Origin: Escherichia coli
GTDB lineage: Bacteria > Pseudomonadota > Gammaproteobacteria > Enterobacterales > Enterobacteriaceae
NCBI RefSeq assembly: GCF_009931435.1
Contig: NZ_CP043415.1
Direction: 5' to 3' (one strand)
DNA: 64,000 bases
The notes beneath the pieces are model-generated. The model was not told the DNA's origin and ran no database searches. It saw nothing but the letters and a program-made list of their open reading frames with translations. This document shows, one piece after another, positions 29,198 through 54,197 of the stretch (the stretch's first letter is position 1; each line of letters starts with the position of its first letter). The position numbers were made by a program, and so were the translations under genes.

Positions 29198-29480
29198 CTC
29201 GCCTCCTCAATTCTCAAACAGGGATCGTTTCGCAGAGGATACTACAGTTTTTTGAAATCAGCGACTTGAAAGTTGTGACGATGATCTGTGTTGGCGCACA
29301 AATCATGTCTGATTACGACCGTTTAATGTGATTTTGATAATGAAATGACTGAAAAGATGGAAATGCCTTAACCTGTGTGCCGGCCCCGGGCGGGACCGGC
29401 TGTTTCTGGCATGTCGGGTGTCTGCCCCTGAAATACCTCACACTTCCGGAAAGCGGGGACTTCCCTCCCCGCCCGGCAGC

Positions 29481-29687
29481 TTACTTCCGTGCTTCGTAGG
29501 CCAGAGTTACCTGCACCACTGTATTTCCCCTGTGAATATTCAGCTCACATAACCGTTCCCTGAATATCAGTGAAAAACACAACACCGTGGCGCACACGGC
29601 GAGCAACCCGATAAGGGCATATTTCGTCATAAACTTTGACCTCTCTGCAAGGAAGAGGCTACAATCAGTAGTGTTAAGGTACTTCAT
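29481..29687 (-). CDS. srnB: Hok/Gef-family type I toxin (SrnB-like)
   Basis: MKYLNTTDCSLFLAERSKFMTKYALIGLLAVCATVLCFSLIFRERLCELNIHRGNTVVQVTLAYEARK; hydrophobic Hok-type core from MTKYALIG. Confidence 0.8.
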   Translation of the reverse strand: MKYLNTTDCSLFLAERSKFMTKYALIGLLAVCATVLCFSLIFRERLCELNIHRGNTVVQVTLAYEARK

Positions 29688-29909
29688 GCAGGCCTCACGA
29701 GTTAATGGATTAACAAGTGGGGTCTTCGCATTTCTGGTACCTGCGTCTTGCCTGAACCAGAAAGGCTCAGACACCCGCCGCGATAATACCACATTCCCTG
29801 TTACTGACCATTCCCTCCATTTCCCGCTTTTCACTACAGAAAAGCCGGGGGCGGGGAAAACTTGCTTTTTCCCGTCCCCGGGGTTGGACAACTGAGCAAC
29901 GCGAAGGCG

Positions 29910-30308
29910 TCAGTGGATTTTTATGATCCTTCCAAACTCTGCTTCCATTTTTTTCATATCCTGTTCTCTTACTGCGACTATCAGTTGTTTTCCTGATTTT
30001 CGTGCCACTCTGGCAAACTGCATGACGGCAGATTCATTATTCAAATCAGACCATCCTGTACAATTAAAAATAATAATATGCTCACTGGCGTTCAGCGCAT
30101 TCCTGATAAAAATAACAGCATAATCATTTAATGTTCTGTCAGAACAACTGTAAATCTGGCTGAAATCATAATACTTATAATCAGTGATATTCAGTTTATT
30201 TAAAAAGCTATCAACTTCAGAAGCTGATTCCCCCACTATAAGAACATTATGATTAGACGATGTGATTAATTCTGATACTGCCTGATAGTTCATTTGTTCA
30301 CCTTTCAT
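29910..30308 (-). CDS. hypothetical protein, AT-rich orphan gene (predicted alpha/beta fold)
   Basis: 132-aa ORF, markedly AT-richer than the flanking genes by inspection; followed by a hairpin plus T-run terminator; no family recognised. Confidence 0.5.
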   Translation of the reverse strand: MKGEQMNYQAVSELITSSNHNVLIVGESASEVDSFLNKLNITDYKYYDFSQIYSCSDRTLNDYAVIFIRNALNASEHIIIFNCTGWSDLNNESAVMQFARVARKSGKQLIVAVREQDMKKMEAEFGRIIKIH

Positions 30309-30395
30309 TAACAGAGAAATAAGTTAATAATGTAATATGCTTCATGCTTTTAAATATCGCATTTCAATGAGAACTCAATAGCCACAGAAATATCA

Positions 30396-30857
30396 TTATT
30401 TCCGTGAGCGCCATACCCAGGGCGGAACAGGAGCGCTGTCTGCCCACAGACCACGTTTCTGCTGTCGTACTTCTCCCTGCAGGACAGGAAGAACAGGATC
30501 GGTGTTGTACTGCTCATAAACCCATGCATCGCCTGCACGGACCATAAACTGATTAACATTCATTCCGTCTGGTGCATAAACCTGCCCGAGAATACGACCA
30601 TAATGATCTCGCTGAAAATATGTGACAGTAACCGTTTTTCCCGCAACCAGAGATTTCATTATTTTTTCAGACCACCGTCCATATTCCTGTTTCTTTTCAG
30701 GTGCATCAATATTAACAAGACGGACACGCACCGGATGCTGAGATAACATGACGTCAATGGTATCGCCATCCAGAACACGCACGACCCGTCCATGAATATC
30801 AGCAGAAAATACCTGACATGAAAAAACAAATAATACCACTGGTATATATTTCTTCAT
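30396..30857 (-). CDS. secreted thermonuclease-family (micrococcal nuclease-like) endonuclease
   Basis: Signal peptide MKKYIPVVLFVFSCQVFSA; SNase motifs VRLVNIDAPE...GR; usual position between repA and finO in F-like plasmids. Confidence 0.8.
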   Translation of the reverse strand: MKKYIPVVLFVFSCQVFSADIHGRVVRVLDGDTIDVMLSQHPVRVRLVNIDAPEKKQEYGRWSEKIMKSLVAGKTVTVTYFQRDHYGRILGQVYAPDGMNVNQFMVRAGDAWVYEQYNTDPVLPVLQGEVRQQKRGLWADSAPVPPWVWRSRK

Positions 30858-31599
30858 TTTACTCTCCGTCACTGATTACTTTTCGTGATTGCATGAATTC
30901 CATGCCGGGATGAATAATGGCTCACGTATCACGCAAAAAATAAACCGTTGAGTTGTGATCAATTCAACAAAATAAGATGAGGTGACTTAATACACATATG
31001 GCTATGTGTTACTAAAAACGCTGGTCAGCCAGCCTGACCAGACACATAAGAAACAACGTCTCATGCATTATTCAGCCTCCTGATACCTGGAGTAACGGAG
31101 GCTGCTTTTTCTGTCACATATTTCCCGTGAAGGCGTTACCGGTTTCCGTGGGTAACATGTGACGGAGATTATATTTTTAATCTCCGTGTATTCATCATAC
31201 CTGCTCTTGCTGACAGGATAACTGTGTTATATCGCAGGCTACCGGATGTGGCGCTGAATATAACGGTCATAGATAAGTCATACATGCCCTGCTCAGGGGA
31301 TTAGCGATAAGACGGACCGGGAGAGTCATCTCCCGGTTTTTCTTTATCCTGCCGCGAATACAGCCCGGCTGTCTGTCAGATTCACCGGATAACCCTACTG
31401 TTATGCATGCCACTGTCACCTCCTGCTTCTTGAAATTCATCACATTTTTTATCCCTGCTGGCTTACCCGGGATGTGAAATATGTTAATTCTGTGATGTCC
31501 GTTTGAAAGACAGGGCAACTCCTTCTTACACCACTATAATAATAATAACGATCTGCCATATAAGTCTGATCCCCCGGAGCTCCGCGACGGGGGTTATTT

Positions 31600-32515: not shown

Positions 32516-32617
32516 GCTTACTCTGACCTTCGTGAAAATATGCCCTGCAGGCCGTTGAAACAACTCATCGTAACAGGAAGTTAATTTCAACGACCTTTAA
32601 CGTATAAATACTGACAA

Positions 32618-33478
32618 TTAAAGATATTGTTTAAACCATTGTGTCTGCACAGCTACTACACGTTCAAAAAACGCGCCCTCATAAATATCATAATGGCATG
32701 CATCAGCTTCCTCGTATAATTCCTTAGTACCAGAAGCAACAGCATCATATAATGCTCTTCCCTGTTCCGGTGGATTAACGCTATCCTGGCCGGCAATAAC
32801 AACCAAAACTGGGCACTGTACTTTGGCTGCGCTCTCTGCCGGTTTATATTGCAACGTTTCCATGACCGTAAGGAAAGGTATTTTTATATCCATTTCGGGA
32901 TGCCGGGCTTTGATTTTCTCGAAGAATACCTTCGATTCATCATCACTTAGTACCCGTGTAACCCCCACAAACATCTCTTTCCCGGTGTTTTTCTTCTTCT
33001 CTGCCATTTTATTCAGCGTGGATAGAAAAGACGCTCTCTCCGATTCATTCATCTCTCCGGTAACCAGAACCTCACCGTCAGCAAAAGCCAGCTGGCTGAC
33101 AATACATTTTACGCGTTGGTCCTGCGCAGCTGCACTGAAGACATGCCCCCCTCCCAGCGATGTTCCCCATAACCCAATACGCTGATTATCAATACATTCC
33201 TGCTTTTCTGCCCAATTGATAACTGAAATAATATCTTCGGTCTGCATTGCAGGAACCAGACGACCTCGTTCTCCATCACTCTCACCGAATCCTCGATAAT
33301 CAAAAGTAATCGTTGCGAATCCTGCTTCTGTGAAGGCATTCGCAAAGCAAGGGAGCAGAACATTCCTGATACCGCAAAACCCATGGCATAAGATAATCAA
33401 AGGATGTTTTATATTTCCTTCAGGAACACGAAATGTCAGGGCAATACCTTCAGAGAGTTTGTGATCCGTAATTTTCAT
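32618..33478 (-). CDS. alpha/beta-hydrolase family protein (R100 orf286-like)
   Basis: 286 aa; nucleophile elbow GTSLGG; located between traX and finO. Confidence 0.75.
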   Translation of the reverse strand: MKITDHKLSEGIALTFRVPEGNIKHPLIILCHGFCGIRNVLLPCFANAFTEAGFATITFDYRGFGESDGERGRLVPAMQTEDIISVINWAEKQECIDNQRIGLWGTSLGGGHVFSAAAQDQRVKCIVSQLAFADGEVLVTGEMNESERASFLSTLNKMAEKKKNTGKEMFVGVTRVLSDDESKVFFEKIKARHPEMDIKIPFLTVMETLQYKPAESAAKVQCPVLVVIAGQDSVNPPEQGRALYDAVASGTKELYEEADACHYDIYEGAFFERVVAVQTQWFKQYL

Positions 33479-33536
33479 AAATATCCTGTGTTATGTTGTT
33501 TATTAATAAGCAGAATCAGCGTCAGTATCATACCAG

Positions 33537-50752: not shown

Positions 50753-52561
50753 TTACTGTCCTGCCTGTTTCAGCTGGTCAGCAATCTGCTCTTTCACTTT
50801 CTGCGTCAGAACGCCACTGTCCGGGATTTTCTGGTTATTCATCAGGTCTTCGTAGAAGTTAGTGAAATCCAGTCTGTTGAACTGAATTTTCTGCAGCTCA
50901 TCAACCGTAATCCCCCGACAGTCAGGATGCTTCGCACTACCAAAACTGATACGCAACTGACCGTTGCGCCCCTGCTGCTGGACTATCTGCGCCAGCTTCG
51001 AATCAAACTGACAGTAGCTGCGTTTTTTCTCCAGACAGACACCCAGCACTTTCTTCGAACAGAACTCCCCGACGCTGACGGTCAGTTTGTTTGATTTTGC
51101 TTTAGCCAGGGCCTTTTCATCACTGCTGCATTTGGCCAGCCCGATATCCTGTCCCCAGCCGCTGTCCTTACAGCAGTTGCTGTATCCGGCTGCAGCCTTC
51201 TTACAAAATTTCGCCTGACCGGTGAAAGCACGGACATCCACCCCGTTCAGCGCCGCAACATCCTTACCTGCTGCGGCCAGTGCCGCCAGCTGAGAAACGG
51301 CTTCGGCAAAATCATTACTCTGCCCGCTCTGAGCCTTATCGCATTCGCCATCGAGACAGAAGACGTCTCCCCCACAGACCATCACTTTCCCGGATGTTTT
51401 TGACTCACAGGAGTACGTGGCATATTCATGCAGACAGGCACCTTCTTCGGAGTAAAAGGCACACTGGTGTGACACCAGGGTACAGGCAGGATTGTCGGTG
51501 TAGGTCTGACAGGTTCCCTTGTCTGCTGACTGCGTGACATACGTGTCCCGGTATGCCCAGCAGCTCTGGTACATGCTGTATGACTGACCGTCTTTCACCA
51601 GCGTCCTGTTCCCGCCAGCCTCCGTACATTCTGTTTTTGTCAGTTTCCCCAGCTCCTTGCTGAACGGGCAGCTTTCAGACCAGACAACATACGGGGTGTA
51701 CGAGGCTTTTTTTACCCTGACAACCAGACGCAGCTTCATTGCCGTATGACGTTTGAATTTTGTATTCCCGACCCGGACGGGGTGAGATGACGTAAAAGCC
51801 ACACCGGCAGTCAGTGTTTTCTGTACTGGTGTAAATGAGGCATCTGCTGAGTATTTGGCATTCCAGCTCAGTGGGGTTCCCAGTACTGTAATTGTCATAG
51901 GTACACTCTTCTGCAGGTAAGTACGACTCCAGCTGTAATGCGCATCGACAATTTCACCGGTAACGGGAGAGGTAATGGAGACAACATACTGACCATTCAC
52001 TTCACGTGCAGGTAGCTGACTCATTTCATACTCCAGCGTCCGGGTTTCCCATGTGGTACTCCCCTGCAGCTCCATACGGGCAGTTCGTGTGCAGTACTGC
52101 TCCACCTGTAAATCCCGCTCACAGGTGTAATTCGTGTATTCACTCCTGCTAATCTCCTGCGCACTGCACTGCTGCCCGGTGTTTCCCACAATGCTGTCAG
52201 CCCGGTTCACCACATCCCTGCCGGTCTGGATAAACGGTGCATCCGGTGAAAGAATGTCTTTCGGCTTGTTCATGAATGACTCTGTAATGGTTTTTCCGGT
52301 TTCACCGGTCGCCCATTCCGTGGTGCCGTCATTTTTCAGGCCGCCATCCCCGCCGGCAGTCACGCCACCGTAATATTTTGTCTCGTCCGGATTCGCGTTA
52401 TAGCCGGGGATACTCTCCTGTGGCTTAAAGCCCTGAATACTGCTGCTTCCCTGCCCTTTGATCTGGTGAGCAAAATCAGAACCGGCCCGGTAATCACTGT
52501 TGCTGTCAGCCTGTGCCATGCCGGCAACCAGAGCCAGTATCAGAGGTAAAATACGTTTCAT
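50753..52561 (-). CDS. traN: mating-pair stabilisation outer-membrane protein TraN
   Basis: 602 aa, Cys-rich C-terminal half, signal peptide. Confidence 0.93.
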   Translation of the reverse strand: MKRILPLILALVAGMAQADSNSDYRAGSDFAHQIKGQGSSSIQGFKPQESIPGYNANPDETKYYGGVTAGGDGGLKNDGTTEWATGETGKTITESFMNKPKDILSPDAPFIQTGRDVVNRADSIVGNTGQQCSAQEISRSEYTNYTCERDLQVEQYCTRTARMELQGSTTWETRTLEYEMSQLPAREVNGQYVVSITSPVTGEIVDAHYSWSRTYLQKSVPMTITVLGTPLSWNAKYSADASFTPVQKTLTAGVAFTSSHPVRVGNTKFKRHTAMKLRLVVRVKKASYTPYVVWSESCPFSKELGKLTKTECTEAGGNRTLVKDGQSYSMYQSCWAYRDTYVTQSADKGTCQTYTDNPACTLVSHQCAFYSEEGACLHEYATYSCESKTSGKVMVCGGDVFCLDGECDKAQSGQSNDFAEAVSQLAALAAAGKDVAALNGVDVRAFTGQAKFCKKAAAGYSNCCKDSGWGQDIGLAKCSSDEKALAKAKSNKLTVSVGEFCSKKVLGVCLEKKRSYCQFDSKLAQIVQQQGRNGQLRISFGSAKHPDCRGITVDELQKIQFNRLDFTNFYEDLMNNQKIPDSGVLTQKVKEQIADQLKQAGQ

Positions 52562-53199
52562 TTCCCGGAATCTCCTTTCCCTGCCAGTAAATCATGAGCC
52601 ACCTGCCGGCAGTCACCCGTGGCGGCCACTTTCTCCAGCGCCTGGCCGACCCGCAGGTTTCCCCGGATGATGTCGTATCCCTGACTGCAGAACACCACCA
52701 GTGCCGGTACAGTGCGAATGCCGTACTGTGAAAACAGCGTCGGGTCGATCTGAACACCATCAGTCGCGCCGTCTTTCACCAGGGACAACACAGCTTCAGC
52801 GGTGGTCTTCAGGTCATTGTTCACCATGCCCCGCAGTGTGGCCGGAATACCGTAGTGCCGGGTTTCGCCCAGCATTCGTTTCAGCCCCTCTTCGGGAATG
52901 GAAAACGACACAAAATACAGAGCACCCTGCCGGGGTTTCCCGTCCTGCGAAGCCTGCTGTTTACGAACCAGCTCATCCAGGAAATGGTTATCTGAACGCT
53001 GAAGGGGGTTTTCCAGCACCTGTTTCTCCGCCCAGGCTTTCAGCTGATGGTCAGGTTTTTCACGCAGTTGTCTGCTTAAATTTTCCTGCTGCTTCAGGAA
53101 CTGGCGGTTTTCAGGAGTGTTCACGTTTTCTGACGCCATAACCGCCCCGTTCAGCATCATCAGCAGTGCTGCCAGAGATTTCATACTCAGCTTCATCAT
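52558..53199 (-). CDS. trbC: pilus assembly protein TrbC
   Basis: 213 aa with signal peptide; F order. Confidence 0.9.
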   Translation of the reverse strand: MMKLSMKSLAALLMMLNGAVMASENVNTPENRQFLKQQENLSRQLREKPDHQLKAWAEKQVLENPLQRSDNHFLDELVRKQQASQDGKPRQGALYFVSFSIPEEGLKRMLGETRHYGIPATLRGMVNNDLKTTAEAVLSLVKDGATDGVQIDPTLFSQYGIRTVPALVVFCSQGYDIIRGNLRVGQALEKVAATGDCRQVAHDLLAGKGDSGK

Positions 53200-53204
53200 T
53201 CACC

Positions 53205-54197
53205 TCACAGGAAGACACAGTTACGTTTACGCCACATCAGGTAGCCGAAGTTTTTCTTTGTGTTGGGCGGATTTTTCCCGGTTTCCCAGCGGGTCACGCT
53301 GCGCCCGAACGGGTGGCACTGCCCGCTGTCCGGGTACATATTCACCATCTGGTAACGCCAGCGTTCTTTGGGCAGGATTGGGGACGGATATTCATTACAG
53401 ACGGCGTTATTTTTCCCGATGGTTTCCATAATCATGCCCTGACGGTGCAGCTTGAACGCCATGCGTTCACTGACCAGCAGGGAGGACTGCAACGGACTGG
53501 ACTCATTACTCACCCAGCCATTGAACGGGTACATACTGCCCTGCGAACCGGCACACCAGAACAGAACATCGAGAGGCATATTAAAGGCGCTGGCAATCGC
53601 ATCTGCTGCACAGGCCCCCTGTGCTATCGGATTGGCAAAGATGACAGCTTCCGGATTGAGAATGGTGGTCAGGCTGCTGTCCGTCCAGGTGGGGTCGATT
53701 TCAGAAAGATAAGCGATATCCAGGTCACCACCTTCCAGACAGCCCAGCGATGTGATGATGTTAAGCCAGTACGTCAGCGGGTATTTGTACCAGTGAACGT
53801 GATAGAACGCCCCGTTCACCTGCTTCTCATCCTTTTTCGCCGTTCCCTGTGCCGTTTTACCAAAAGCCGGCAGGCTGAAGCCCAGGTTCACCATGCATCC
53901 CGGTGATCGGGTGACGTCCGTCAGCGCCATCGGCTCCCAGTAACCAATGGCCAGCCCGATACGCCTGAACAGCGGCGGCGGTGCCGGACAAATCTGAATG
54001 GGCATCGACGGGTTCGCCGTGTCGGGGACCTTACCCTGACTGACTTTGATACTGCCCAGCGAGAGCGGGAAAATACAGCTCCAGCAGATATCCGTGATCG
54101 GGTTTACAAAACGCCCCTCACAGGCAGAATCCGCAGACGCTGCAGGGACATGACCGGCGAGAAGGAATAACATCAGCAGCCACAGGCTTCGCTTCAT
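53205..54197 (-). CDS. traU: TraU
   Basis: 330 aa, signal peptide, Cys-rich; F order. Confidence 0.93.
   Translation of the reverse strand: MKRSLWLLMLFLLAGHVPAASADSACEGRFVNPITDICWSCIFPLSLGSIKVSQGKVPDTANPSMPIQICPAPPPLFRRIGLAIGYWEPMALTDVTRSPGCMVNLGFSLPAFGKTAQGTAKKDEKQVNGAFYHVHWYKYPLTYWLNIITSLGCLEGGDLDIAYLSEIDPTWTDSSLTTILNPEAVIFANPIAQGACAADAIASAFNMPLDVLFWCAGSQGSMYPFNGWVSNESSPLQSSLLVSERMAFKLHRQGMIMETIGKNNAVCNEYPSPILPKERWRYQMVNMYPDSGQCHPFGRSVTRWETGKNPPNTKKNFGYLMWRKRNCVFL

Follow-up and report, generated by a model that had tools for sequence, protein, structure and literature searches.

The 64,000-nt stretch of E. coli DNA analysed here, called the window in the following, has an IncF backbone, in which a short AT-rich open reading frame (ORF) is located between the hok/srnB-sok locus and a thermonuclease gene (nuc). 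The locus raises the question whether this ORF is a real gene, what kind of protein it encodes and which role such a protein might have for the plasmid. Resistance and virulence genes of E. coli are carried mainly by IncF plasmids, and the interval between finO and repA2, which contains the ORF, is among the least understood variable regions of these plasmids. A sequence-only reading had described the ORF as foreign cargo inserted into a conserved backbone, with a possible anti-defence, toxin or immunity function.

The gene and the interval between finO and repA2

On the minus strand of the window, the genes are arranged in the order traI, traX, alpha/beta hydrolase, finO, thermonuclease, ORF, hok/srnB-sok, copB/repA2, CopA RNA and repA1. 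The features around the ORF are the following:

29910..30308, minus: 132-codon ORF between the hok/srnB-sok locus and the thermonuclease gene
29910..30293, minus: coding sequence of a predicted 127-aa degenerate mini P-loop (pseudo-ATPase) protein, which would have 132 aa if translation began further upstream, at the ATG at 30308
30297..30305, minus: Shine-Dalgarno-like AAAGGTGA(A), 5 nt 5' of the ATG at 30293, from direct reading of the sequence
30294..30395, minus: AT-rich spacer from nuc to the ORF, with 27.6% GC over 30309-30395
30396..30857, minus: thermonuclease gene (SNase family, signal peptide), from NCBIfam EcnA/NucI matches and the RefSeq annotation
29839..29913, minus: 75-nt backbone element beginning at the ORF stop codon, 92-95% identical in other IncF plasmids
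29481-29630, minus: hok/srnB toxin coding sequence (Hok/Gef), from the NCBI annotation
29481..29776, minus: hok/srnB and sok antisense region, the downstream neighbour, outside the 127-aa gene

The 132-aa ORF was found where it had been reported from the sequence, between srnB and the nuclease gene at 29910-30308 on the minus strand. The likelier start is the second ATG, five codons into the ORF at 30293, because AAAGGTGA is located 5 nt upstream of it and because RefSeq uses the same start on an identical plasmid (WP_001109067.1, 127 aa); the likely product therefore has 127 aa. The ORF had been judged by eye to be markedly AT-richer than its flanks, and this was confirmed by computation. Its GC content of 34.6% is below that of nuc (45.7%), of the window as a whole (49.2%) and of the hok region (49.9%), and corresponds to the 4th percentile among 384-nt windows. 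At the composition of the ORF about 7% of random codons are stop codons, and the chance of 132 open codons is then about 5e-5 by our own arithmetic. The identical intact 127-aa protein is recorded on 892 contigs, on every one of them under the name 'hypothetical protein'. Since a chance ORF is improbable and homologues exist with a dN/dS well below 1, the sequence data identify the ORF as a genuine plasmid gene.

In the spacer between nuc and the ORF, the promoter scan revealed no sigma-70 consensus on the minus strand. This makes co-transcription probable, and the ORF and nuc are predicted to share one transcript. Consensus scans for terminators and promoters identified nothing specific for the gene. 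The signal peptide of the nuclease was recognized in our own reading of its N-terminus, and in the same way no comparable N-terminal hydrophobic stretch was seen in the 127-aa protein. On the other side of the ORF, sok was identified by an Rfam match at 29620-29776 (99 bits). The hok/srnB-sok module (about 29335-29838) is itself an indel, which is missing in two other IncF plasmids (L015, L016), where the upstream region of repA2 adjoins the 75-nt element. An additional Rfam match, AS-pc02 ('Antisense to pHK01_099'), is located at 31034-31158 on the plus strand (47.6 bits); it is located in the spacer that separates nuc from the side with a 67-aa ORF and finO, where it overlaps a terminator-like minus-strand hairpin (31041-31021).

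Directly 3' of the ORF stop codon, a hairpin at 29846-29880 is followed by the run CUUUUCUG at 29838-29845, and the 91-nt stretch containing the hairpin folds with -34.2 kcal/mol (z = -3.3). It was missed by the consensus terminator scan. A hairpin and T-run terminator had been ascribed to the gene as its own; both parts are present, but they belong to a backbone element common to other IncF plasmids, since the same 75 nt trail unrelated genes there. At 92-95% identity, the element follows a DUF2726 gene (L015, L016, L001) or a 188-aa ORF (L003), and homology to the other slot types restarts precisely at the ORF stop codon. The element looks like a fixed recombination boundary or a shared terminator. 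It probably acts as the common terminator for whichever gene closes the variable slot, and would then probably shield hok and repA2 against read-through. Close to this element, a 28-nt segment (29814-29841 in the window) is present as direct repeats flanking a 145/154-aa paralogue of the ORF in other plasmids (L019 916-1889, L001 1176-1799), which suggests that the paralogue was gained or lost via recombination between these repeats.

The distribution of the ORF was determined in PLSDB and in complete E. coli genomes:

PLSDB plasmids matching the 1.5-kb neighbourhood: at least 5000
neighbourhood-matching plasmids with at least 80% of the 1.5 kb covered: 232
PLSDB plasmids with the ORF at 95% identity or more: 241 of 72,556
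further records with a weaker match only (60-80% identity, mostly the paralogue at about 68%): 299
complete E. coli genomes with the ORF: 195 of 5426 (3.6%)
places of the ORF in these E. coli genomes that are on plasmids: 200 of 201

This comparison across plasmids had been proposed as a check, and by it the ORF is far from universal, being much rarer than its flanks. A nuc gene is present in 2649 PLSDB plasmids. In 2350 plasmids the best match to nuc of the window is 80-90% identical and represents a different allele, with the common allele at about 83%, while the nuclease allele located beside the ORF was found at 95% identity or more in 244 plasmids, vs the 241 with the ORF. The ORF always occurs together with this divergent nuclease allele and is co-inherited with it. 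Two plasmids with the common nuc allele were examined, and in both hha and a DUF2726 gene follow nuc in place of the ORF. Other contents of the slot are PIN-DUF2726-paralogue and PIN-phrog_17934-paralogue-188-aa ORF, and in pDA61218-116 the 127-aa and 145-aa paralogues are organized in tandem. The finO-repA2 interval is a mosaic slot, and the ORF is one of several alternative cargos there. From the description as foreign cargo in a conserved backbone, the variable presence and the AT-richness were retained, but the whole finO-repA2 interval is mosaic and the nuclease itself is a divergent allele. A simple insertion into conserved backbone was ruled out by mapping of the homology breakpoints.

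A further cargo with a presence/absence pattern is located between traX and finO (32618-33478) and encodes an alpha/beta hydrolase of 286 aa. It is missing in p1658/97 (L016) and pO26_2 (L001), to which homology breaks off at 32518 and resumes at 33526.

Family, Walker motifs and fold of the 127-aa protein

The sequence-only reading had recognised no family, and this holds, since no named or curated family was matched in profile searches of Pfam, NCBIfam and PDB. Scans of the protein and two IncF paralogues with Pfam, NCBIfam, PADLOC and PHROG gave nothing above noise, and Pfam searches with 19 family members gave only weak and scattered AAA and P-loop matches. The large protein searches provided no better names than 'hypothetical protein' or 'ATP-binding protein', and profile searches against PDB sequences gave generic P-loop matches, with none to solved structures beyond the P-loop. 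In the literature, no mention was found for the RefSeq accessions or for YfdA together with IncI2; comparative papers on IncX and F plasmids mention topB, but not this gene (PMC11880322, PMC11796372, PMC5102898).

Homologues were identified by a profile search over 1.84 billion cluster representatives, which retrieved just 42 proteins, so that the family is narrow. Full-length relatives with Walker motifs (GxxGxGK[ST] and hhhhD) were obtained in the profile search at E = 1e-13 to 4e-5, and the reciprocal family HMM matches the ORF of the window at E = 1.5e-49. These distant full-length members have 140-165 aa, with G-x-T-G-x-G-K-S/T as Walker A and h-L-I-L-D-x-V-E as Walker B. The corresponding sites in the window are as follows (from alignments A2 and A3 and the motif table):

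30210..30233, minus: Walker A remnant, residues 21-28, G-E-S-A-S-E-V-D
30054..30077, minus: Walker B remnant, residues 73-80, I-I-I-F-N-C-T-G

At the Walker A site, where ESASEVD is aligned under TGxGK[ST], Val27 takes the place of Lys and Asp28 that of Ser/Thr; at the Walker B site, where IIFN is aligned under LILD, Asn77 occupies the position of Asp and Gly80 that of the downstream acidic residue. The protein thus contains neither the Walker A motif GxxxxGK[ST] nor the Walker B motif hhhhD with a catalytic acidic residue, by which a competent ATPase is defined. Because all four residues have been replaced, the window protein is classified as a catalytically dead pseudo-ATPase, with the loss of NTP binding deduced from the motifs. 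The 93 family members of at least 120 aa fall into three motif states:

dead Walker A with N at the Walker B position: 78 of 93
canonical Walker A and Walker B: 12 of 93
mixed: 3 of 93

Most of the 78 dead members, a class that takes in P0095/P0096 and four sequences without a Walker A region, read G-x-S-x-[ST]-x-[VI]-D / IIFNC, and within the dead clade, which populates the finO-repA2 slot of IncF plasmids, the replaced P-loop is conserved in its own right. Two segments, K-Y-[YF]-D-F and A-R-K-x-G-K-[RQ]-L-I-V, are common to active and dead members, and 38 columns are invariant across 17 aligned close and 50%-identical homologues. Catalytic residues were lost more than once independently, in the branches of P0083, of P0095/P0096 and of the IncI2 form. 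On the basis of these comparisons, the family represents an unnamed minimal single-domain ASCE P-loop family of conjugative plasmids, of which the window form has been naturally inactivated. As far as sampled, the family is restricted to conjugative plasmids of Enterobacterales.

The structure prediction and structural search that had been proposed as a check resulted in a confident beta/alpha model with neighbours of ATPase fold. The alignment-based AlphaFold model has a pLDDT of 86.5 and a pTM of 0.82 and consists of five beta-alpha units; it stops at beta5 (residues 122-125 of 127), while full-length relatives terminate in a beta-hairpin, with no helices. In a Foldseek search of AFDB50, the family itself was found at the top, followed by 139-166-aa 'ATP-binding proteins' from Salmonella and E. 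coli and then by AAA+ and STAND domains. The structure comparison revealed the three-layer alpha/beta/alpha core with a parallel sheet that is characteristic of the ASCE division of P-loop NTPases. The assignment to this fold, an ASCE P-loop NTPase core of the RecA/DnaB/KaiC-like or AAA+-like type, and to the family is made with high confidence, and both a RecA-like and an AAA+-like ancestry would fit the P-loop core of the 127-aa protein.

A small Rossmann-like domain had been suggested earlier from the predicted alternation of strands and helices. This alternation is present in the AlphaFold model, but the fold is that of a P-loop NTPase core. Rossmann-like domains are alike in the three-layer alpha/beta/alpha sandwich with alternating strands and helices. 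A Rossmann-like dinucleotide-binding domain was rejected, as neither a GxGxxG loop after beta1 nor best matches to Rossmann enzymes were found.

Relatives with intact Walker motifs and plasmid topoisomerases

A tblastn search with an active member identified about 1000 PLSDB plasmids, almost all of them conjugative plasmids of Enterobacterales. Twelve independent genomic contexts of relatives were read, and in seven of the twelve a plasmid type IA topoisomerase (TopB) is encoded immediately downstream or within two genes:

L006, L008-10: type IA topoisomerase immediately downstream, with a 4-nt overlap
L022/L023, and L014 of IncX5: topoisomerase adjacent
L007, L011: topoisomerase about 100 nt or one tiny ORF away
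L020: topoisomerase two genes away
L004: relative between pilQ and pilR
L005: relative between virB2 and virB3
L012: relative after the IncI2 coupling protein ('YfdA')
L013: relative between traU and trbC of an IncF plasmid ('ATP-binding protein')
L024: relative beside a relaxase/NikA pair

From this arrangement, the relative with Walker motifs is a candidate partner ATPase of TopB, and neither the papers nor the curated families searched describe this ATPase. For the relatives abutting TopB (L006 958-3668, L008 6001-8624, L022 5001-7652, L014 4980-7959), the stop and start codons overlap or abut. In some IncF plasmids, an active member of 153 aa is inserted together with a 150-aa ORF between traU and trbC (L013 4992-5935); in the tra operon of the window, traU (53205-54197) and trbC (52558-53199) are adjacent with no insert.

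Many RefSeq records list the IncI2 member (L012 4971-5489), in which Walker A is kept and Asn is present at the Walker B position, as 'YfdA protein' or as 'sigma 54-interacting transcriptional regulator'. This naming is probably a mis-annotation driven by the P-loop, and corrections of this kind are one use of the family.

No topoisomerase was found in the finO-repA2 slot of the window, L001, L003 or L019, and to our knowledge TopB is not carried by IncF plasmids, so that the window gene is connected only indirectly with the ancestral setting of the family. TopB modules also hold genes for SNase, Hha, H-NS, SprT-like, DUF2726 and ArdR proteins, and the combination of SNase, P-loop family, Hha, DUF2726 and TopB is found repeatedly on conjugative plasmids of IncX and other types. 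Pieces of this set are contained in the IncF slot. The ORF therefore belongs to a recurrent accessory set of conjugative plasmids rather than being random foreign cargo. All family members are AT-richer than their surroundings (27-41% vs 32-52% GC), and AT-richness is a trait of the whole family.

With these relatives, a 'hypothetical protein' is placed in a definable, unnamed family tied to topoisomerase III, Hha/H-NS and SNase modules of IncX, IncI2 and IncF plasmids. The family provides a handle on the plasmid TopB modules, in the form of a small candidate partner ATPase together with naturally dead derivatives. For the gene of the window itself the pay-off is modest, and the link of the family to plasmid topoisomerase III is the more useful lead.

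The gene contents of these modules also bear on the anti-defence, toxin or immunity function that had been proposed for the gene, which we consider very improbable. In its favour, the gene is variable, AT-rich and uncharacterised and is located on a conjugative plasmid; nucleases (SNase, DUF2726, PIN) and the hok toxin are encoded beside it in the slot, and an antirestriction gene, ardR, is present in the IncX5 module with an active relative. However, the only PADLOC signal was a sub-threshold oMTase match (E = 0.0049) with no passing stretch, and PHROG gave none. The gene on the finO side varies, being the thermonuclease in the window, DUF2726 in pO26_2 and the phrog_17934 protein in p12A2, and in pDA61218-116 a paralogue intervenes between the gene and hok. 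No partner gene is thus conserved across the subclades, and the two-gene signature of a toxin and its immunity protein is absent. In addition, the adjoining nuclease has a signal peptide, while no such hydrophobic N-terminus was seen in the 127-aa protein, the gene is located at the distal end of the transfer region, outside the early-entering leading region, and frameshifted copies, which make up about a third of those sampled, are common and tolerated. A nuclease-immunity pair in particular was rejected, on the grounds that the neighbour differs between subclades and that the nuclease has a signal peptide.

Selection, decay and the proposed role

Selection on the protein was analysed by comparison of the window allele with the paralogous IncF alleles of pO26_2, p12A2 and the second copy in pDA61218-116, all of which are without Walker motifs. 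The Nei-Gojobori dN/dS was 0.25-0.37 at a dS of about 0.9-1.8, which shows purifying selection. Since these subclades are all motif-less, the dead clade has been kept as a protein after the loss of the catalytic residues. Within the window allele, dN/dS was 0.58, a value that is based on only ten differences. This allele is also the shortest form, with 127 aa vs 143-157 aa, and the terminal beta-hairpin is absent from it. When 60 of the 241 PLSDB copies, evenly spaced, were sampled, about 20 were found to be one base shorter than the query. Two independent frameshifts were read, one due to the loss of a T near codon 27 and the other to a missing G in the run at codon 21, and a G21W variant was also seen among the copies of the window allele. 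The window allele is evidently dispensable, because many copies are frameshifted. It appears less constrained than the dead clade, and the pattern is compatible with its ongoing decay. Both frameshifts (L017, L018) fall into the former P-loop region, where they inactivate the gene within successful plasmid lineages, and one of them is located within a G5 run.

These data raise the possibility that the gene is a decaying relic, which lost its ATPase role long ago, has no current role and persists by linkage to the nuclease, hok and replication genes. The loss of all catalytic motifs, a C-terminus shorter than in every other subclade, the frameshifts and G21W, the dN/dS within the allele and the many truncated sequences of 69-117 aa in protein databases would be in agreement with this. 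However, dN/dS is low between three subclades that diverged after the loss of the motifs, the replaced P-loop and the 38 columns over the 17 clade sequences are conserved, the fold is predicted with confidence, and the intact protein is present on the 892 contigs and in most sampled copies. We therefore regard a mere relic as unlikely.

The best explanation, which we hold with moderate confidence, is that the protein is a bare ASCE P-loop core, a pseudo-ATPase that would act as a binding module independent of nucleotide. How such a module might work can be proposed only tentatively. The gene product is predicted to be a small cytoplasmic protein, in which canonical NTP binding and hydrolysis would have been lost. 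The surfaces retained from the family could bind a partner protein or DNA without nucleotide, so that the protein would serve as a scaffold and as a non-essential accessory when plasmid DNA is handled or established.

A more specific proposal, which we judge improbable, is that the dead protein is a decoy or poison subunit, which would assemble together with an oligomeric ATPase from a rival plasmid or from the host, or would cap it. The conservation of KY[YF]DF and ARKxGK[RQ]LIV in active and dead members would be consistent with such a retained interface. Oligomeric ATPases of the RecA-like and AAA+ types are found as structural neighbours, among them natural pseudo-ATPase partners such as XRCC2 and Elp5, and the independent loss of catalytic residues in P0083, P0095/P0096 and the IncI2 form points in the same direction. 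Against it, the search for an active paralogue in cis that could serve as partner was negative for pO26_2, which has a dead copy, and for the window, which has the dead copy only. The targets of the decoy might be the active paralogues of rival IncX, IncI2 or IncF plasmids, such as those coupled to TopB, or a host ATPase of the RecA/DnaB type, a choice of targets that is likewise doubtful. A protein of this kind would modulate the transfer of a competitor or the response of the host to incoming DNA. If this were true, it would represent a new kind of competition or establishment factor of IncF plasmids, with a logic akin to that of PsiB and the fertility-inhibition proteins, and the recurrent inactivation in the family would amount to the repeated invention of inhibitors.

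For the pseudo-ATPase binding module preferred here, the closest comparison is with the unnamed 'ATP-binding protein'/'YfdA' family found in IncI2, IncX5, the traU-trbC insert and upstream of TopB. These proteins are true homologues, with E-values down to 1e-13. In contrast to the window protein, they keep Walker A and Walker B and have a longer C-terminus, and they adjoin TopB or are located in transfer and pilus operons, outside the finO-repA2 slot.

Compared to AAA+ proteins (NSF D2, Cdc48/p97, the RFC small subunit, Hda), the window protein is without the C-terminal helical lid that carries sensor 2, and neither a sensor-2 nor a recognisable arginine-finger region was identified in it. Active relatives match Hda of NCBIfam weakly over about 100 residues (E = 1.5e-5 and 3.5e-4), which is far below the curated cut-off, and every score of the family is far under the family cut-offs.

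The minimal ATPases of the RecA superfamily (FlaH, KaiC domains, RadB, XRCC2, Elp5) are alike in consisting of a single ASCE P-loop core with a five-stranded parallel sheet, to which a C-terminal beta-hairpin is added in the full-length members of the plasmid family. However, their identity to the window protein is only 10-18%, and most of them exceed the window protein in length by about 100 residues. Unlike these ATPases, it is without the C-terminal hairpin and both Walker motifs, and it is confined to plasmids. Some members and relatives of the RecA superfamily (FlaH, KaiC, RadB and RAD51 paralogues, e.g., XRCC2, and Elp5) are non-catalytic partners. By analogy, the window protein may be likened in its mode of action to the non-catalytic members of RecA and AAA+ assemblies.
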